Positions 24,746-62,777 of a stretch of 64,000 nucleotides of DNA are shown piece by piece. The stretch's first letter is position 1. Each line of letters starts with the position of its first letter. A model generated the notes under the pieces. It was not told the DNA's origin and did not search any database. It saw nothing but the letters and a program-made list of their open reading frames with translations. The position numbers were made by a program, and so were the translations under genes. This DNA is from a virus. Taxonomy: Duplodnaviria; Heunggongvirae; Uroviricota; Caudoviricetes. The DNA lies in IMG/VR virus record IMGVR_UViG_3300021399_000101, positions 65,630 through 129,629 of that record; one strand, written 5' to 3'.

Positions 24746-24754
24746 GATACTGTT

Positions 24755-24827
24755 GGGGTCGTCGTCTAACCGGTTAGGACACCGCCCTTTCACGGCGGCA
24801 ATCCGGGTTCAAGCCCCGGTGACCCTG
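24755..24827 (+). tRNA. tRNA, anticodon loop CTTTCAC (UUC, Glu) by manual folding
   Basis: Acceptor GGGGTCG/TGACCCT (two GU pairs). D stem GTCT/GGAC. Anticodon stem CCGCC/GGCGG. T arm CCGGG-TTCAAGC-CCCGG. Confidence 0.6.
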
Positions 24828-24845
24828 TTATGCAGGGATTTATGA

Positions 24846-24895: not shown

Positions 24896-25078
24896 ATGTT
24901 TGGTGCTAATTGGAGCATTCCGATAACTATTTATATTATAGTGATGAGCTTCTTGACGTTTCTTGAAGCATCGTGCTCTACTAGCATATTCTGGAGAGAG
25001 TTTCTTCTTACATTGTCATTTACTTTCCTTGTTGTTATATTGCCGGCTTTTTGGATAACAGGTATATTTACAATTTGA
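24896..25078 (+). CDS. small hydrophobic membrane protein (about 60 aa, two predicted transmembrane segments)
   Basis: Ribosome-binding site TAAGGAAGTTTGATTATG. Strongly hydrophobic sequence. Confidence 0.45.
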   Translation: MFGANWSIPITIYIIVMSFLTFLEASCSTSIFWREFLLTLSFTFLVVILPAFWITGIFTI

Positions 25079-25285
25079 CAAAAAGCTTAAAAATTTATAT
25101 AATTTAATAAGCGGAAACACAGTAGAAATGATTTAGTGAGAATGTCAGCAAATAATAAGTTTTTGTAGGTGTAGTTAAAGGGATAAAACGTCCGAAAGGA
25201 AAATCCGGGTTCGAATCCCGGCTCCCACCGCTTCCTCTCTTTCAGAGGGCATTCTCAGAGTTTTTTGATAAATATTTTTTAATTT

Positions 25286-25380
25286 GGATGCACACAGCAA
25301 CTAAAAAACAATTATTAGTTCGAATCTAATCTTTCGTGCCATTAAATACGAGAGTGCGCCCAATGGTAGGGCAAGCATCC
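25286..25380 (+). ncRNA. circularly permuted tRNA-like element: outer helix GGATGC/GCATCC enclosing a T-arm plus acceptor-3' (with encoded CCA), a 6-nt linker, then acceptor-5' plus D-arm
   Basis: ATTAG-TTCGAAT-CTAAT T-arm. CTTTCGT-G-CCA, then TTAAAT, then ACGAGAG (7 bp, one GU). GCCC-AATGGTA-GGGC D-arm. Paralog at 63494-63612. Confidence 0.4.
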
Positions 25381-25521
25381 AGTTTTAATTGCCGGGTCGT
25401 ATAAAAGTAGTATAAGGGTCTTTGAAGCCCATGGAGAAGGAGCGTTACCTTCCCCGGCAGTAAGTTATTTGAAGCCTTATAGGAAAGTGTTTGATTATAT
25501 AAATAGTGGAGGCGAAACAAA

Positions 25522-50389: not shown

Positions 50390-50430
50390 GCAACCTTGAC
50401 AAAAGGCTTCTGTTCTGTTACAATGTAAGG

Positions 50431-50467
50431 GGTTCGGACGTGTGAGCCCCAAATTTTTTCACTTCGT
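50431..50467 (+). terminator. rho-independent terminator (GGGGTTC-GGACGTGT-GAGCCCC, then AAATTTTTT)
   Basis: 7-bp stem plus T-run. Confidence 0.55.
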
Positions 50468-51480
50468 GTCAAGTTCAAGTGATGACTGTAAAGAGAACCC
50501 GCAAATTCGCAGGTCGGTGGCTTAAATCTTGACTTGAACGATTAAAGGCTTGCATGGAGCGAAAACCCTTACTTCCAAGGGGTTCAGAGTAACTCCAAGC
50601 CACTTGACGGCAATTCTGAAAACTGCTATAATTAAAGCACCAAGTAGGAAATGCTGGAAGTCAGATGGTTAGGCTTTCTCGAAAGGACTATAAACACAAG
50701 TAAAGCCGTTGTTATTGGTTTGGGTGGGTGCTTGACTATCTAAAGAAGCACTACGCAGGGGGTCAGCGTTTAGAGAAGGCTCCAACTGTTTGGTCACAGT
50801 TGACAACTTAAAGTTTCAAGACAACGAAAAGAAAACTAGACTATGTTCACGGCGTAAGGCGGATACATTTACTTTAATAATGAGATACCGCTAACCTCAG
50901 TCCGGCTTGGCAACCGAACGGGTTAAATAGTTGAGCCATGGGGCTTGACGCCAAATCATGAATTTGGTATAATATTTATGTGAGTTGACTGGGGTTTAAT
51001 GGAGGTTGCACTGATGTGTGGTAAAATGTTCCTACCGATTAAGGTTCGATTCCTTAACAACTTATCGGTCACTGTTGGGTATTGAGGCTGAAACAGTGGC
51101 AAGTGATATTGGTATTTTCTAGGGATATTGATGTTGCTAGGCTTATGGCGGTTGCAAACGCCATGCTGAAATAACACTATGGGATTTTATCATAACCGTC
51201 CACCCACGGCACGATGAAACAAGTTCGACTCTTGTTAGTGTTAATAGGGTTTTTGGCAGTTCTGCAGACCCGCTCTAGCGAAGCAAAACTGCAAGTGTTC
51301 TCGTGTTGACCACCATGAGGTAATTCGCCGTTGGGCTGGTCACCCAATAAAGGATAGAGTTAATTGGTATGGTGAAATGCCAAAGTGGGCAGAGTAGACA
51401 CAGGGTTCAAGTCCCTGCTATCCAGTCAAAAGTCAAGTTGAGGGCTTGGCACCAAATCAAAAATTTGGTATAATGTGTGT
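50468..51480 (+). other. about 1 kb non-coding region with at least four consensus-like promoters (near 50585, 50945, 51434 and the upstream 50395), several long hairpins and degenerate tRNA-like T-arm/acceptor modules (e.g. 50984-51070 and 51330-51410)
   Basis: No ORF with a ribosome-binding site on either strand. TTCGATT and TTCAAGT T-loop-like hairpins with flanking complementary acceptor-like strands. Confidence 0.4.
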
Positions 51481-53234: not shown

Positions 53235-53399
53235 TAAGCAGTAATGATGAGATTTTCGGGGACGCCCGAAAAAGAGCCCTGCCACGCTAATGGCACAGGT
53301 TAACCTATATAGACGTAAGCTGGTTTTGGAGTCATTCTCCAAGAAATGCAAGATATTAAATGCCAGACTTGCAGGAACAGGGGCAAAACTGCTTTTAAT

Positions 53400-53470
53400 G
53401 TTCCCATCGACTAATAGCAGGTCGCTACCTTCTCAGGGTGGAAATATTGGTGCAAATCCATTTGGGAATA
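53400..53470 (+). tRNA. tRNA family member A: acceptor GTTCCCA, anticodon loop TTCTCAG (CUC, Glu), non-canonical T-loop TGCAAAT
   Basis: GTTCCCA-TC-GACT-AATAGCA-GGTC-G-CTACC-TTCTCAG-GGTGG-AAAT-ATTGG-TGCAAAT-CCATT-TGGGAAT-A. Confidence 0.5.
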
Positions 53471-53478
53471 AAAAGAAG

Positions 53479-54025: not shown

Positions 54026-54259
54026 GGTAGTTACTTACAACTAGCACATTACACTAGAGTCTGAGTAGTGCGAGTGGGCAGGACACGAATGTGCTTTAAT
54101 CTGTGAGAGAAGGTTTCTAAGGGTAGAGTACTATGCGTTTAGAGATTAGCTCGTTCTGCGAAAACCGACACACGAATGCCAAATCCGCTTAAGTCGATTG
54201 TAAGTGCACAAAGTAGAGATAAAGGTCGCCTCGAAGTTAGCAGAGTAGCAGATTTTAAT

Positions 54260-54330
54260 GTTCCCATCGACTAGTAGTAGGTCGCTTGGTTCTCAGCCAA
54301 GAAACATTGGTGCAATTCCATTTGGGAATA
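54260..54330 (+). tRNA. tRNA family member B: anticodon stem CTTGG/CCAAG, loop TTCTCAG (CUC)
   Basis: Same acceptor, D and T arms as member A. The anticodon stem differs by compensatory changes. Confidence 0.5.
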
Positions 54331-54474
54331 AACTTGCGAAAAAATGTTTATAAATAATCTTTGCGGTTTTTATGAATATTTGCACCGTCAAAACTTGATA
54401 CCGGTTTCTCCAGTAGGGAGTCAAAGTAGGGATATAGTTGCCGCCCGAAGTTGGCACCGCTAGCAAGTTATAAT

Positions 54475-54546
54475 GTTCCCTTCGAATAATGGTTAGTTCG
54501 TCAGATTTTCAATCTGAAAACATCGGTTCAACTCCGTTAGGGAATA
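54475..54546 (+). tRNA. tRNA family member C: anticodon loop TTTTCAA (UUC, Glu), canonical T-loop TTCAACT
   Basis: GTTCCCT-TC-GAAT-AATGGTTA-GTTC-G-TCAGA-TTTTCAA-TCTGA-AAAC-ATCGG-TTCAACT-CCGTT-AGGGAAT-A. Confidence 0.6.
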
Positions 54547-54731
54547 TCGGGTTAAACGACACCCACGAAAAGAACGTTAGGCACTAAAAGTTCCACCTTT
54601 ATGGAAGCAAGCATTTTCGATGGTTTTAGCAACAAAACCATAACAACTTGTTTGCTGAGGTACAAGTAGGTAAACGAAGTGGGGGTCGCCAGTGAATGGT
54701 ATACCGAGTGCGATACCTTATTTTTTATAAT

Positions 54732-54801
54732 GTTCCCATCGACTAATGCAGGTCGTCACCTTCTCAGGGTGGAAATATTGGTTCAAGTCCATTTGGGAAT
54801 A
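54732..54801 (+). tRNA. tRNA family member D: anticodon stem TCACC/GGTGG, loop TTCTCAG (CUC), canonical T-loop TTCAAGT
   Basis: GTTCCCA-TC-GACT-AATGCA-GGTC-G-TCACC-TTCTCAG-GGTGG-AAAT-ATTGG-TTCAAGT-CCATT-TGGGAAT-A. Confidence 0.6.
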
Positions 54802-54896
54802 TCTGGTTAAAAAACACCCATTAAAAGAAATTCTCGGTTTGTAGCTTTAGACACCGCCTTGCCTCTTAACGACTGTAAGGTTTTAAAGAACTATGT

Positions 54897-54962
54897 GTTC
54901 CCATAGACCAAGTTGGTCATCACTTCTTAGTGAAGAAATTGGTGCAAGTCCGATTGGGAATA
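54897..54962 (+). ncRNA. tRNA-like family member E with a collapsed anticodon arm (TCACT-TCTT-AGTGA, a 4-nt loop); probably not decodable
   Basis: Shares acceptor GTTCCCA/TGGGAAT and T-arm with members A-D. 66 nt. Confidence 0.4.
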
Positions 54963-55344
54963 AATGTAAAACAAAGTTGAGCAGTTTTCAGCCATCTGAA
55001 ATATAGGTGGAGCCGTAACACTTTTAGGCTCAATGAAATCGTCAACACTTCTGACCAAGTTTGGCGTCCCTTTTCTTCAAATTCTTTTAGGGTATGCGTA
55101 GAAATAAAGAACACCGTTTCACCCTTTATCGGTATTTAGAAGAAGGGTAGGTGAGCCTTTGTGCAATTTGCGTATTTTGACCTGAGGATATTAAATACGA
55201 CGAGCGTGAGAGTGGGTAGATGGAGCAAGTTGGTCAGCGATGCTACTCACATAATGTGCCACGTTGCGAGTTTCTTAGGGGCAGATGCAGGTGCTCCTAA
55301 GGGATTTGCGAAGTAGCACATACTTTTTTATTAAGGAGAGGAAG

Positions 55345-59230: not shown

Positions 59231-60337
59231 ATGGCACATGAACTTGCAGTTATATCTAAGATTCAGAGTATTACTCCAATTGAAGGAAAAGACTTCATTG
59301 AGCTTGCTAGAATTGAGAACTACGACTCAGTAGTTCAGAAAGGCGAGTTTAAGGAAGGCGATATTGCTATATATGTTTTTTATGACTCTATTCTTCCTCA
59401 GAGGGAGGAATTTGAGTTTCTTAGAAAGAGATGCTGGTCTCCTAAGTATCAGGGGTTTAGAATTAGACCTATGAAACTTGGCAATGTTGTATCAGAGGGC
59501 CTCGTTCTTCCTATGTCTGTACTTCCGCAGAATAAGAAATACAAGGTCGGTGATGTTGTTACTGACGACCTTGGCATTGTTCTTTATGACCCGGAATATA
59601 ACCCTTCTAAGCCGAAGGCAGAGCCCAAGGGATTCTTTAAGGCTCTTATGAAGATTCCTGCTTTTAGGAAACTTGTCAATCGTTATTATGCCTTTAAGAA
59701 GGCTCATAATAACAAGAATTATCCTAATTGGGTTGTCAAGTCCGACGAGGATAATATTGAAAAGCTTTGGGATAAGGTTAAAGACAATTCCTCAGTTTTT
59801 ATTCTTACTGAAAAAGTTGAAGGTATGTCCACTTCTTATGCAATCGAGAAGGGCAAGTTCAAGGTTTATTCTCATAATTGGAGAGTGAAGGAAGGTGCTT
59901 GGGTTGAGTACGCCGTAAAGCACAATATTGAGGCAAAGCTTAGAAAACTCTGCAAGAATAATGGCTGGAAGTCTATTTGTATTCAGGGCGAGCTTGTCGG
60001 CCCTACAATTCAGAGAAATATCTATAATCTTAAAGACTTTGATTTTTATATGTTTGGCGGATACTATGCAGATGGTCAGAAATTCACTTGGAGCGACGTC
60101 TGTAATGTTGCAAGCTGGATTGACGAAAAGACCGTTCCTAGACTTGGCACAAAGCACATTTCCGATTTTGACGGACTTGATGCAATAATCAAGAACGCAG
60201 ATGGAAAGTCAAAAATTTATAATGTCAAAAGAGAGGGAATTGTTTGGAGAGACCAGTCTGGGTCAGTACATTTCAAAGCCAAGTCTAGGGACTACAAGGT
60301 GTGGTTTGAGAAGAAAGCTGAGAAGGAAGGCGAGTAA
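59231..60337 (+). CDS. ATP-dependent polynucleotide ligase of the covalent nucleotidyltransferase superfamily (RNA-ligase-like, with an N-terminal OB-like domain)
   Basis: Motif I TEKVEGMS (KxEG), motif III ICIQGELVGP, motif IV REGIVWR, motif V HFKAKSRDY. The size and N-terminal domain resemble Rnl-type ligases. Confidence 0.6.
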   Translation: MAHELAVISKIQSITPIEGKDFIELARIENYDSVVQKGEFKEGDIAIYVFYDSILPQREEFEFLRKRCWSPKYQGFRIRPMKLGNVVSEGLVLPMSVLPQNKKYKVGDVVTDDLGIVLYDPEYNPSKPKAEPKGFFKALMKIPAFRKLVNRYYAFKKAHNNKNYPNWVVKSDEDNIEKLWDKVKDNSSVFILTEKVEGMSTSYAIEKGKFKVYSHNWRVKEGAWVEYAVKHNIEAKLRKLCKNNGWKSICIQGELVGPTIQRNIYNLKDFDFYMFGGYYADGQKFTWSDVCNVASWIDEKTVPRLGTKHISDFDGLDAIIKNADGKSKIYNVKREGIVWRDQSGSVHFKAKSRDYKVWFEKKAEKEGE

Positions 60338-61938: not shown

Positions 61939-62082
61939 AAGCGTAAAGAAAGGAATAATGGGGCGTAAATGGTGTCGGTGGTGACTTTATTAAAGCCTGA
62001 TAAATATATTCCTTTATGCGGTTTCCCGTTTTCAATAAGAATAGACAGTGTGTTAAAGAGAATTTGGTGTCGAGAAATTTAA

Positions 62083-62122: not shown

Positions 62123-62326
62123 GTGAGAAAAATGAATGTAACAAAAAGTCAGTTCAAAAGGCTGTCTCTTACAAGAGGTGCTTTAATCAGAGAACGAGAA
62201 ACAAAGATTGCCCAATATGAAGAACAGAAAGAGATGTTAAATGAAAATGAGACATCTACTCTTTTGGACAATATAAACACTTTGGCGTCAAGAATAAATA
62301 AGATAGACGAAAAAATTGGGGTGTAA
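62123..62326 (+). CDS. small hypothetical protein (67 aa)
   Basis: Ribosome-binding site AAGGTGAGAAAAATG. Confidence 0.45.
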   Translation: MRKMNVTKSQFKRLSLTRGALIRERETKIAQYEEQKEMLNENETSTLLDNINTLASRINKIDEKIGV

Positions 62327-62397
62327 ATGGTGTCGATTGGAGTTCAAGACCCCAAGCGGGAAACTTCAAGACGTGGGTTCAATTCCCACACGCTCCA
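62318..62397 (+). ncRNA. tRNA-like, type-II-sized (80 nt): acceptor GGGGTGT/ACGCTCC, T-arm GTGGG-TTCAATT-CCCAC, candidate anticodon loop TTCAAGA (CAA). The D-arm is not resolvable by eye.
   Basis: 7-bp acceptor (two GU pairs) and a canonical T-arm. The first 18 nt (GGGGTGTAAATGGTGTCG) recur at 61967. Confidence 0.35.
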
Positions 62398-62506
62398 CTA
62401 TGACTGGAAGTATATTTGGTGATATTTGTATTACATTGGTAGTTGCAACAACGTGCTTTTGTGTAGGTTGCCTCTTTTTGGCAATTTATAAATATATAGT
62501 AAAATA

Positions 62507-62582
62507 GCGGGCGGTTAGCTCAGTTGGTAGTAGCATTACACTTTTAATGTAAGAGTCGGCGGTTCAAATCCGCCACCGCTCA
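62507..62582 (+). tRNA. tRNA-Lys (anticodon UUU)
   Basis: GCGGGCG-GT-TAGC-TCAGTTGGTA-GTAGC... anticodon arm TTACA-CTTTTAA-TGTAA, T-arm GGCGG-TTCAAAT-CCGCC, acceptor 3' ACCGCTC-A. Confidence 0.85.
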
Positions 62583-62777
62583 ACCAGTCCCTTGATTATC
62601 CACTAGGAGAGGGAAACTTGTTAGGTGAAGGATACACAGTGAACAAGAGGAAATATGGCTGTTAGAGGGTTTTCGCGAGAACCCTGCTCCATATTAGTCA
62701 GACGCCTAAATAAAACGAGAGGAATCTTCGGAGTCCGCAAAAAATGTCTGACATTTATATTTATACAGGGGAAAATT

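Follow-up and report, generated by a model that had tools for sequence, protein, structure and literature searches.

Putative Y-RNA-type small RNA genes of a large phage, probable partners of a divergent Ro60-like protein

tRNA-like elements in the phage genome

The window analysed here, a 64,000-nt stretch of the genome of a phage of the Caudoviricetes, carries two copies of a small tRNA-like element and a third, related module, all on the plus strand (Table 1). The phage has over 40 tRNA genes and, at 59231-60337, a gene for an RNA ligase; RNA-ligase and kinase genes are found near the elements, which sit in the tRNA islands of large phages. Megablast searches of both copy regions against GenBank phages returned no match, and that set contains no close sequenced relative. 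In copy 1, the T arm is followed by the acceptor 3' strand (CUUUCGU, 25331-25337), a G and an encoded CCA (25338-25341), the loop UUAAAU, the acceptor 5' strand (ACGAGAG, 25348-25354), which completes a 7-bp acceptor with one G.U pair, and the D arm. This layout, first described in the first-pass annotation, is borne out by the sequence; the closing helix, hereafter P1, was given there as 6 bp and is actually 8 bp, and the gap between the acceptor and the D stem is 3 nt (UGC), not two. The same annotation's view of the unit as a structured RNA whose topology is that of a circularly permuted tRNA also holds, but an anticodon arm is absent, the 22-nt stretch between P1 and the T arm (ACACAGCAACUAAAAAACAAUU) being unstructured. 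The minimum free energy fold of copy 1 contains the closing helix, acceptor hairpin and D arm described above and misdraws the A/U-poor T arm; its z-score is -3.2 and none of 200 shuffled sequences is as stable.

Copy 2, located at 63493-63613 and noticed earlier as 63494-63612, has the layout of copy 1 plus an anticodon-like hairpin with the loop CUUGUAA. R1, a covariance model trained on sequences of other phages only and with no sequence from the window, matches both copies over the full model length, with 61.5 bits (E 2.4e-10) for copy 1 and 86.9 bits (E 1e-15) for copy 2. The module at 25137-25257, which is absent from the first-pass annotation, contains a tRNA-like body in normal order (25165-25229) with a 3-bp "anticodon" arm capped by GAAA, followed by a hairpin, and its inner part is matched by the Rfam tRNA model with 38.7 bits. 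A promoter-like site with 12 of 12 consensus positions ends about 30 nt before this module and is a candidate promoter for the RNA cluster, as judged from the consensus scan.

Table 1. Positions of the RNA elements and associated features (window numbering, except for the last four lines, which refer to scaffold L328)
Feature	Position	Strand	Basis or remark
Promoter-like TTGACA-17-TATAAT (12/12)	25075..25103	+	Consensus scan only; function not implied
Third module, UGAGAAUG-U-CAGCAA ... CAUUCUCA	25137..25257	+	Helix-plus-motif scan
Copy 1, Y-RNA-like gene, P1 5' through P1 3' strand	25284..25382	+	Sequence, fold, R1 score
Copy 1 P1 5' strand, UUGGAUGC	25284..25291	+	Partner 25375-25382
Copy 1 CAGCAA	25295..25300	+	3 nt 3' of the P1 5' strand
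Copy 1 T arm, AUUAG-UUCGAAU-CUAAU	25314..25330	+	Sequence; covariation of family helix 2
Copy 1 closed acceptor-like hairpin, CUUUCGU-G-CCA-UUAAAU-ACGAGAG	25331..25354	+	Fold; family helix 3
Copy 1 D arm, GCCC-AAUGGUA-GGGC	25358..25372	+	Fold, family covariation
Copy 1 P1 3' strand, GCAUCCAG, then UUU	25375..25382	+	Fold, helix-plus-motif scan, family covariation
Copy 2	63493..63613	+	Sequence, fold, R1 score
Copy 2 P1, UGGAUAC(A)/(U)GUAUCCA	within 63493..63613	+	
Copy 2 CAGCAA	63503-63508	+	
Copy 2 T arm	63541-63557	+	
Copy 2 acceptor hairpin	63558-63577	+	
Copy 2 D arm	63580-63595	+	
Module flanking the DUF2828+vWA gene, same phage	L328 9856-9976		
Module flanking the DUF2828+vWA gene, same phage	L328 12006-12221		
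Module flanking the DUF2828+vWA gene, same phage	L328 12988-13049		
Module flanking the DUF2828+vWA gene, same phage	L328 14643-14766		

A conserved clamp defines the RNA family

The conserved and defining module of this RNA family is a clamp, not the tRNA-like body. It consists, in this order, of P1 (7-9 bp), a spacer (3 nt in copies 1 and 2 and 1-4 nt across the family), CAGCAA, an A-rich 3' linker and the P1 3' strand. The first-pass annotation correctly recognised the flanks (GGATRCACACAGCAA...RYATCCAGT) as conserved but missed their role as the defining module. A T loop is present in 37 of 233 modules, and the majority of the relatives are without a tRNA-like insert. Tandem arrays of 54-64-nt units also exist, in giant-virus-like contigs.

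RNAalifold analysis of 55 members independently recovered P1, the T arm, the acceptor hairpin and the D arm. All four helices covary, with compensatory changes in 21 of the 23 pairs and a covariation score of 0.867, compared with 0.229 for shuffled alignments, none of 500 shuffles reaching the observed value. All seven pairs of the acceptor-like hairpin (family helix 3) are changed on both sides, and so are all seven modelled pairs of P1, although the 55 aligned members were picked for the presence of P1 and the unbiased figure for this helix is 79 of 104 pattern matches with P1 in register, where 2.2 are expected. Compensatory conservation in related phages, which had been named earlier as a check on the fold, is therefore present, and the converse proposal, that the two halves are remnants of two adjacent ordinary tRNA genes, is refuted by the P1 register, the covariation and the R1 scores. 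More generally, adjacent tRNAs resemble the element in linear order, as a T loop is there followed by the D loop of the neighbour, and pattern scans are noisy for this reason; four covarying helices, a conserved clamp and hundreds of independent loci nevertheless leave a chance arrangement or the decayed remnants of adjacent tRNA genes with next to no probability.

The tRNA body is attached to the clamp in at least three permutations, and its break point varies by member, lying at 26/27, at 43/44 or at the acceptor end. Anticodon loops of 7 nt that look real, having U33 and a purine as residue 37, are present in copy 2 and in many relatives, the loops found in relatives being of the Lys, Arg, Thr, Ile, Tyr and Asp types. 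When un-permuted, copy 2 gives a 72-nt tRNA-Thr-like sequence that shares 74% identity with the tRNA-Thr(GGU) of the phage itself and has an anticodon stem of 3-4 bp only. Such features, together with the RNA ligase gene and the G73-CCA directly 3' of the copy 1 acceptor 3' strand, would suit a working permuted (split) tRNA gene, in which RNase P and 3' processing cut the acceptor loop and yield a two-piece tRNA kept together by P1, or a ligated and then re-opened circle, that is charged and used in translation. An encoded N73-CCA is, however, found in 9 of the 55 aligned members and missing in the other 46, copy 1 offers no anticodon arm, most modules lack a tRNA-like insert and the break points differ among those that have one. 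P1 and CAGCAA would also be superfluous to a tRNA, no 3-4-3 bulge-helix-bulge was found by inspection and a splicing endonuclease was not seen, so that we regard this alternative as highly improbable.

The pattern is nearly absent from cellular genomes: a scan of 185,579 species genomes of bacteria and archaea found it in a single contig, which is phage-like. Scans of genomes and metagenomes yielded few new tRNA-like members, at the L151 locus only, and otherwise arrays and chance matches, and a scan with the bare 15-mer GGATRCACACAGCAA yielded chiefly chance matches plus one conserved coding sequence (GGATGCACACAGCAATTCACCC...). In Rfam searches at the gathering thresholds and at E <= 10, tRNA and a sub-threshold YrlA core were matched and no other family.

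At L128 and some other loci the units lie about 5 nt from tRNA genes, which, like the tandem arrays, is compatible with P1 and CAGCAA being a processing signal or self-cleaving ribozyme that releases units from a polycistronic tRNA transcript, or a type III antitoxin-like repeat. No Rfam ribozyme was matched at E <= 10, the cores of hammerhead, twister, pistol, hatchet and HDV-like ribozymes are absent by eye, and the linkage to a Ro60-like gene described below would be left unexplained, which makes this alternative most improbable. Several other candidates were considered and dropped: a CRISPR-like array, since the "spacers" would be hairpins of almost the same sequence; a permuted group I intron, given the shortness of the flanks; a type III antitoxin repeat as such; and an extra P2 helix between the linkers, which is inconsistent across members.

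A linked gene for a predicted Ro60-like protein

A gene for a 480-aa protein with DUF2828 and vWA domains lies 546 nt downstream of copy 2 on the same strand. It went unseen by the earlier reader because it is just outside the window. The gene was read, at positions 10522-11961, from the metagenomic scaffold L328, which overlaps the last 10.4 kb of the window and agrees with it at every comparison made (the query protein, a 100-nt probe, the copy 2 sequence and the tRNA positions). Four modules flank the gene on L328 (Table 1); directly beyond the window end, this phage has three modules in addition to those within the window.

Pfam searches of the protein at E <= 10 matched DUF2828, DUF7788 and, weakly, VWA_2 only, with TROVE (PF05731) unmatched, and NCBIfam searches gave no match, Rsr included; in NCBI, these proteins are labelled "DUF2828 family protein" or "hypothetical". 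A BLASTP comparison of the DUF2828 protein with Ro60 aligned the MIDAS segment alone, and phmmer against PDB sequences found nothing. BLASTP and phmmer were thus insufficient, and structure prediction and profile methods were therefore needed. A homologue, P0001, with 91% identity to the protein of this phage was modelled with AF2; the model has a pLDDT of 89.5, and its ten best matches in the PDB are all Ro60/TROVE structures, matched over the full length with E values of 6e-8 to 2e-5, although the identity to solved Ro60 structures is 12-14% only. Alignment with phage TROVE proteins by hhalign gave a probability of 92.6%, and the profile phrog_850, annotated as "RNA-binding protein", matches both the DUF2828 protein (5e-129) and the Ro60 of CcrColossus (5e-73). 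The MIDAS residues D289, S291 and S293 (DxSxS) are invariant. The structural model gives the family the Ro60 fold, with a HEAT-repeat ring and a C-terminal vWA domain with a MIDAS, and together with the profile matches it shows the homology to Ro60. A tblastn search with the CcrColossus Ro60 against about 320 loci and the window found nothing, and none of the 20 largest ORFs of the window matches TROVE.

The genomic linkage between the RNA and the protein genes is tight, strand-specific and reciprocal. Among the 119 loci fetched by the RNA pattern, 42 contain a DUF2828 homologue, compared with 2 in a comparison set of 118 mostly chance loci, both of which are true members. Conversely, at least one CAGCAA module is found on the same strand within 1.5 kb in 71 of the 80 loci fetched by the protein alone; these 80 loci contain 202 such modules, with a median distance of 182 nt, and in the controls only 8 loci had modules when the opposite strand was scanned, and again 8 when the flanks were shuffled. 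CAGCAA is also the top strand-specific hexamer of DUF2828 flanks (96 flanks vs. 21 for its reverse complement). Across the loci compared, the motif tracks the protein type, CAGCAA being found with DUF2828 and UACUUCR (UUCGA/UUCAA) with TROVE: DUF2828 loci contain 256 CAGCAA and 10 UACUUCR modules, and TROVE loci 0 and 13, respectively. Most tandem-array loci are without a DUF2828 gene in the flanks examined. Viral contigs with this branch number at least 574 and its proteins more than 3,000, and the RNA-protein pairing, found in hundreds of phage genomes, is uncatalogued as an RNA family.

Proposed role of the elements

We consider it likely that the element is a Y-RNA-type small non-coding RNA gene, a YrlA-like tRNA mimic that belongs to a divergent Ro60-like particle. 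The earlier suggestion of a tRNA mimic instead of an ordinary tRNA gene is thereby upheld as the best view. We infer that the genes are transcribed and processed and that the RNAs are physically bound by the protein, and the biological role set out below is likewise a proposal.

We propose that the RNA is made of two modules. The handle, which comprises P1, the unpaired CAGCAA and the A-rich linker before the P1 3' strand, may be the binding site of the phage Ro60-like ring protein with its DUF2828 helical domain and vWA/MIDAS domain, and CAGCAA may be the bulge that contacts the protein in place of the CGAA of canonical Y RNAs. The cargo would be the tRNA-shaped body, whose T and D arms could form a tRNA elbow next to the loop-closed acceptor stem. 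Ro60/Rsr binds YrlA, in which tRNA modifications (pseudouridine 55 and dihydrouridine) are present and on which tRNA enzymes act. If Ro60/Y RNA particles are taken as the model, the cargo may link the ring protein to factors that recognise tRNAs, or to nucleases and repair enzymes, and would do so during infection by a phage with so many tRNA genes and an RNA ligase of its own.

A free-standing decoy for host defences that target tRNAs, such as anticodon nucleases, in which P1 only stabilises the RNA and no Ro-like protein takes part, would fit the position of the element inside large-phage tRNA islands, the recurrence of Lys, Arg, Thr, Ile, Tyr and Asp anticodon-like loops and the RNA-ligase and kinase genes nearby. 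It is nevertheless unlikely, for it leaves the invariant CAGCAA, the short members and the strand-specific linkage to the Ro60-like gene unexplained, and copy 1 offers no anticodon loop. A decoy role can coexist with a YrlA-like RNA in a Ro60-like particle, as the role of the cargo.

A bolder reading, which taken as a whole is possible but rather doubtful, is that the Ro60-like particle serves as a phage counter-defence or tRNA-surveillance machine with interchangeable RNA adaptors. The ring would be loaded with RNA "adaptors" whose cargo, including genuine Lys, Arg, Thr, Ile, Tyr and Asp anticodon loops, might serve as bait for the anticodon nucleases of the host, or might bring in damaged tRNAs together with the RNA ligase and kinase of the phage, so that the tRNA pool would be protected or repaired while the infection runs. 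The 54-64-nt arrays of giant-virus-like contigs might then be the same system in another viral realm, and a CCA-encoding subset might even give rise to two-piece tRNAs through RNase P cleavage.

Ro60/Y-RNA particles are known from organisms as distant as humans and bacteria, and from a few phages. To the best of our knowledge, RNA partners of Ro60 have hitherto been found only beside genes annotated as TROVE. The system described here would add a much larger, virus-specific Ro60-like branch with an RNA handle of its own (P1 and CAGCAA) that lies beyond the Rfam models and bears swappable cargo, from hairpins to tRNA bodies in different permutations. With two natural pairs of motif and protein, the reading of RNA by Ro60-type rings becomes testable, as do the purpose of tRNA mimicry by Y RNAs and the reason why such RNAs lie within large-phage tRNA islands beside RNA-repair genes. 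Unannotated gaps in phage tRNA regions would also be accounted for.

Comparison with known systems

Permuted tRNA genes of Cyanidioschyzon merolae and other algae resemble the element in that the 3' half precedes the 5' half, the linker is short and the termini are paired. The algal transcripts mature via a bulge-helix-bulge cut, circularisation, RNase P and RNase Z to complete tRNAs. Unlike in the algal genes, the clamp itself is conserved here and also occurs without a tRNA-like body; inspection revealed no bulge-helix-bulge, P1 being an unbroken 7-9 bp helix flanked on a single side by a conserved unpaired motif; and un-permuting gives a tRNA-like sequence for copy 2 but no anticodon arm for copy 1. 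The comparison with algal permuted tRNAs made in the first-pass annotation is not the relevant one, because the topology is already known as that of YrlA-type Y RNAs (PMC4201824; Rfam consensus).

Two-piece tmRNA likewise has a permuted tRNA-like domain, with the acceptor 3' strand and CCA before the 5' strand. In contrast, the element has no tag reading frame or pseudoknots, and its D arm is stemmed, whereas tmRNA is without a regular D stem. E-value searches of both element regions with tmRNA and permuted-tmRNA models gave no match, and ARAGORN found no tmRNA.

YrlA, which is found in bacteria and phages, has the same topology of a 5'/3' stem, a T arm, a closed acceptor-like stem and a D arm, and its gene lies less than 4 kb from rsr on the same strand (PMC4201824). 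YrlA (RF02553) and the element share a stem formed by the ends, a short unpaired motif after its 5' strand, an A-rich 3' strand and the domain order (V) - T arm - closed acceptor-like stem - D arm. In both, multiple RNA genes adjoin a Ro60-fold gene on the same strand, phages are among the carriers, and shorter siblings without the tRNA-like domain exist (cf. YrlB). The two differ in the motif, which is CAGCAA here and GNCGAA/CGAA (GNCGAAN0-1G) in YrlA, where it is taken as the Ro60/Rsr contact; in the partner, which is a Pfam DUF2828+DUF7788 protein and not TROVE; in the permutations of the tRNA body and the near-absence from cellular genomes; and in the location within phage tRNA islands, some genes lying tens of kb from the protein gene. 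Copy 2 lies 546 nt from the Ro60-fold gene on the same strand, but this is a DUF2828 gene outside the window and not a Pfam TROVE gene; copy 1 and the module at 25137 lie 38.8 kb from it, well past the 4 kb applied to YrlA. The Rfam gathering search of the whole window did not report YrlA; copy 1 has no YrlA match at E <= 10, and copy 2 has a partial one of 32.9 bits, far under the gathering score of 69, which covers the core only (model positions 24-84; E 1e-5 in a 301-nt search).

The shared T / closed-acceptor / D topology, the match of the copy 2 core to the YrlA model and the cross-matching of R1 to RNAs beside TROVE genes could also mean that the element is an ordinary YrlA that works with a canonical TROVE Ro60/Rsr of host or phage, the DUF2828 neighbour being irrelevant. 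This is very unlikely given the scores just described, the absence of GNCGAA, the lack of TROVE matches among the 20 largest window ORFs and in the tblastn search of about 320 loci and the window, the tracking of protein type by the motif and the single phage-like contig among the cellular genomes.

Among the close counterparts of the proposed DUF2828-linked Y-RNA-like family are the UACUUCGA RNAs of phages with a TROVE-type Ro60. Phage Ro60 binds Y-like RNAs with a CGAA bulge (PMC12135203), and the Yrl RNAs of Thermus phage phiLo (PMC12135203), CcrColossus, Bacillus phage G and crAss001 are like the element in architecture and in adjacency to a ring-protein gene. RNAs beside the TROVE genes of CcrColossus, crAss001, Bacillus phage G and LR745206 contain P1, UAC-UUCRA and an insert that is either short or a tRNA-like body of the T / closed-acceptor / D type, and R1 matches them with 53-58 bits. 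Their motif, unlike CAGCAA, is UAC-UUCGA or UAC-UUCAA, and their neighbours are Pfam-recognisable TROVE genes. Common to both phage groups are P1, a 3-nt spacer, a motif of 5-6 nt that ends in RA and an insert that sometimes carries ACCA.

Layout and fold of the RNA elements

Copy 1 is closed by a helix of the RNA's 5' and 3' ends (P1), which is followed by the motif CAGCAA and an enclosed insert, or cargo. Minimum-free-energy folding recovers the closing helix, acceptor hairpin and D arm (z = -3.2), so that the permuted tRNA-like layout described for this site in the first-pass annotation is borne out by both sequence reading and fold. The second copy of like architecture is likewise real, and it adds an anticodon-like hairpin to the plan of copy 1; put back into tRNA order, it becomes a 72-nt tRNA-Thr-like sequence. 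Neither copy is called by ARAGORN or the Rfam tRNA model. Scanning the window for the helix together with the motif added a third member, which encloses an odd 65-nt Rfam 'tRNA'. A split tRNA in working order is unlikely for copy 1, because this copy is without an anticodon arm, and such a tRNA would also leave unexplained the conserved clamp (P1 plus CAGCAA) and the insert-free majority of modules.

Immediately 3' of copy 1 is a 71-nt tRNA-like gene with the anticodon loop CUUUGAA and an atypical T loop, scoring 38.5 bits with Rfam tRNA in a local search; it was not called by ARAGORN and is missing from the whole-window gathering search.

Positions of RNA elements and associated features (window coordinates unless a retrieved viral or metagenomic locus, L, is named)
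Feature	Position	Strand	Detail
Copy 1	25284-25382	+	parts in the next eight rows by sequence reading
P1 5' strand	first part of copy 1	+	UUGGAUGC
ACA then CAGCAA	directly 3' of P1 5' strand	+
A-rich linker	between CAGCAA and T arm	+	13 nt
T arm	after A-rich linker	+	AUUAG-UUCGAAU-CUAAU
Acceptor-like hairpin	after T arm	+	CUUUCGU-G-CCA-UUAAAU-ACGAGAG
UGC	between acceptor-like hairpin and D arm	+
D arm	after UGC	+	GCCC-AAUGGUA-GGGC
AA then P1 3' strand	3' end of copy 1	+	GCAUCCAG
Copy 2	63493-63613	+
Third member	25137-25257
Enclosed Rfam 'tRNA'	25165-25229
Candidate promoter	25075-25103
tRNA-like gene	25390-25460	+
tRNA-Glu genes	24754-24828, 53399-53471, 54259-54331, 54474-54548, 54731-54803, 62888-62961
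'tRNA-???'	54896-54963		68 nt
ORF-poor stretch	50400-51480	+	~1.1 kb
RNA ligase gene	59231-60337	+	PHA02142 OB fold + RNA_ligase
5' piece similar to tmRNA-like sequence	~61951-61975		GGGGCGUAAAUGGUGUCGGUGG
tmRNA-like sequence	62318-62400	+	83 nt
Unannotated, 3' of tRNA-Lys	62583-62760	+	GGAUACACAGUGAACAAG
ORF at window end	63638-63883
DUF2828 gene	64159-65601 (window-equivalent)	+	480 aa
AAA_33 kinase-like and Acb2/Tad1-like genes	L328 17950-18441 and 18848-19180
ACCACA-ending cargo	L102 9566-9683
ACCACA-ending cargo	L128 4942-5059	-
ACCACA-ending cargo	L287
ACCACA-ending cargo	L323 ~2340-2440
Tandem array	L016 ~1036-1430	-

A conserved clamp with variable cargo

The conserved portion of the element is the clamp. 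Searching viral contigs with the 5' motif of the first-pass annotation as the pattern returned mostly chance matches, plus true relatives whose flanks enclose differing inserts: permuted tRNA-like bodies (L099, L151), another tRNA-like body with ACCACA at its end (L102, L128) or short A/U-rich inserts (L108, L177/L191); in further relatives (L016, L112, L121, L131, L184 and others), units of 54-64 nt, each with a small hairpin of UUCG type, form tandem arrays. A later scan, in which only CAGCAA, the T loop and the D loop were fixed, gave at least 104 distinct matches. A 7-bp helix is in register, with its 5' strand ending exactly 3 nt before CAGCAA and its 3' strand after the D arm, in 79 of the 104 distinct matches listed, against 2.2 expected with a shuffled 5' strand, and the sequence of P1 varies freely among phages (e.g., AGGAUAC/GUAUCCU, AGGUUCU/AGAACCU and AGACCGU/ACGGUCU). 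From an alignment of 55 relatives picked for having P1, RNAalifold alone predicts P1, T arm, acceptor hairpin and D arm, and 21 of 23 pairs are compensatory. Paired cells amount to 96.6% (64.5% in shuffles, 36-45% in slid controls), and the covariation score of 0.867 (vs. 0.229) was equalled by 0 of 500 shuffles. The relatives thus support all four helices, and because these covary, a chance arrangement or remnants of adjacent tRNAs are ruled out. R1, a covariance model trained on other phages with no window sequence, matches copy 2 (86.9 bits) and copy 1 (61.5 bits), each at full length.

The unannotated 62583-62760 contains several GC-rich hairpins and a sequence loosely like the clamp 5' motif; R1 on the overlapping 62515-62664, which takes in the tRNA-Lys, scores only 21 bits (E 0.08).

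The order of the tRNA body also varies: anticodon arm, T, acceptor hairpin and D (break at 26/27); T, acceptor hairpin, D and anticodon arm (break at 43/44); D, anticodon arm and T, with P1 replacing the acceptor stem; or a T arm with unrelated hairpins. N73-CCA is encoded after the acceptor 3' strand in 9 of the 55 aligned members, copy 1 among them. Modules beside the putative partner gene, which encodes a DUF2828 protein, have a median length of 64 nt (n = 233), and a T loop occurs in only 37 of them; the tRNA mimic is therefore one kind of cargo and not an obligatory one.

A second cargo in the same clamp (...GCCGUSCAAGUGGGSACCGUGGUUGAAAU.GGGGUUCGAUUCCCGGC...ACCACA, with the P1 3' strand directly after) looks like a tRNA- or tmRNA-like domain in normal order, and a similar sequence adjoins the canonical Ro60 gene of the Caulobacter phage CcrColossus. 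The tandem arrays (also at L124) have up to 14 units, each being the same P1 + AC(A/C)CAGCAA module with a small, often UUCG-closed hairpin showing compensatory changes; alternatively, the P1 strands of neighbouring units could pair with each other (GUAUUC-UGUAGA-GGAUAC). Array contigs are AT-rich and often labelled giant-virus MAG or freshwater metagenome. At two of them (L119 = L193; L126) the opposite strand has a DUF2828 gene at a distance of 170-230 nt; the retrieved flanks of the others have none.

Linkage to a gene for a Ro60-like protein

Among 185,579 bacterial and archaeal species genomes the RNA pattern is almost absent, the one matching contig being phage-like. Extension past the window end from the terminal ORF reached L328, a metagenomic scaffold that overlaps the final 10.4 kb of the window and has 33 tRNA genes. 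Just outside the window, 546 nt downstream of copy 2 and on the same strand, L328 encodes a protein with the Pfam domains DUF2828 and DUF7788, and three further modules follow this gene at distances of 42 nt, 1.0 kb and 2.7 kb.

The linkage is reciprocal and strand-specific. A DUF2828 homologue lies within the few retrieved kb of 42 of 119 RNA-pattern loci, usually 16-400 nt from the module and on the same strand, compared with 2 of 118 mostly chance loci, both of which are true members. Conversely, among 80 viral loci picked by protein similarity alone, 71 have at least one same-strand module within 1.5 kb (202 modules in all, median distance 182 nt), whereas the opposite-strand control and the shuffled-flank control each gave 8 loci. 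No hexamer in the flanks of DUF2828 genes is more strand-biased than CAGCAA. A decoy independent of a Ro protein leaves the clamp and this linkage unexplained, though acting as a decoy may be the role of the cargo; a ribozyme, processing signal or antitoxin has no support.

The neighbouring DUF2828 protein is a Ro60 relative. Its family has more than 3,000 members, labelled 'DUF2828 family protein' or not at all, and no functional account of DUF2828 was found in the literature searched. The protein of this phage shares 91% identity with a homologue, P0001, whose AlphaFold model (pLDDT 89.5, pTM 0.89) shows a helical domain and, after it, a vWA domain. Every one of the ten best PDB matches to that model is a Ro60/TROVE chain, the sources being Xenopus, Deinococcus and Thermus phage phiLo (500-570 aligned columns, E 6e-8 to 2e-5). 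Comparison with three phage TROVE proteins by hhalign gave a probability of 92.6%, covering the final helical repeats together with the MIDAS region, and the PHROGs family phrog_850 ('RNA-binding protein') matches both the DUF2828 protein (5e-129) and CcrColossus Ro60 (5e-73) end to end. The DUF2828 protein has no match to Pfam TROVE or NCBIfam Rsr. A YrlA bound by canonical Rsr fails as a reading of the RNAs, in the Rfam score test as well as in the motif test.

Proposed function and genomic setting

We propose that the RNAs are transcribed on the + strand along with the tRNA island, where a consensus scan places a candidate sigma-70 promoter (12/12) ~30 nt before the first module, and that P1 and CAGCAA form a putative binding site for the Ro60-like protein. 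The tRNA-shaped cargo may then engage enzymes that recognise tRNA, a nuclease or a factor for repair, by analogy with proposals for the Ro60-Y RNA-PNPase complex and for YrlA. The setting fits a role in RNA quality control or repair during infection without proving it: 11 tRNA genes are called inside the window, a further 25 follow shortly after its end, and an RNA ligase gene and a downstream kinase-like gene accompany them.

In or beside the tRNA island are also an RNA ligase gene and, past the window end, AAA_33 kinase-like and Acb2/Tad1-like genes, the latter with an anti-CBASS/Thoeris sponge fold; an RNA-repair and anti-defence neighbourhood is possible. tRNA-Glu, with six genes in 64 kb (anticodons UUC and CUC), is an unusually over-represented isoacceptor family in the window, and one 'tRNA-???' has a 2-nt anticodon call. 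The tmRNA-like sequence (51.2 bits; Rfam gathering score 47) covers only both ends of the model, i.e., the tRNA-like domain without the tag-coding part, and a similar 5' piece lies ~370 nt upstream. The stretch at 50400-51480, without an ORF of at least 90 aa and higher in GC (44%), has several near-consensus sigma-70 promoter sites, each followed by 100-300 nt with GGTTCGATTCC, AGTTCGACTCT or GGTTCAAGTCC, all resembling a T arm, at the end. The units have the look of unclassified genes for small tRNA-like RNAs; Rfam gave no match there at E <= 0.01.

Comparison with known Y RNAs

tRNA-mimicking Y RNAs and their Ro60 partners are already known, phages included. What appears undescribed in Rfam 15 and the literature searched is the virus-specific branch of DUF2828-type Ro60-like proteins, its CAGCAA RNA handle, the several ways in which the tRNA body is permuted, the siting of the modules inside tRNA islands, and their tandem arrays.

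At the CcrColossus locus, reached through a blastn match, four to five unannotated RNAs lie immediately upstream of a TROVE+vWA gene, and like RNAs adjoin the TROVE gene in crAss001, in Bacillus phage G and in an uncultured phage of 635 kb. They share with the window RNAs the architecture of P1, motif, insert and P1 3' strand, with a P1 of 7-10 bp, but have UAC then UUCGA or UUCAA where the window RNAs have CAGCAA; their insert is short, or consists of T arm, closed acceptor (with ACCA in phage G) and D arm. This architecture agrees with the Rfam YrlA consensus and with Y RNAs as published, in which the 5' and 3' ends form a stem and a bulge carries the CGAA motif (PMC4201824; PMC12135203). 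Consequently, of the novel, tRNA-mimicking structured RNA suggested in the first-pass annotation, the mimicry holds, whereas the plan is not new. Motif type and protein type correspond: DUF2828 loci (562 kb) contain 256 CAGCAA and 10 UACUUCR modules, and TROVE loci (33 kb) contain 0 and 13, respectively. The tRNA-like RNAs adjacent to TROVE genes still reach 53-58 bits with R1, and the CAGCAA and UACUUCR classes are therefore related in architecture.
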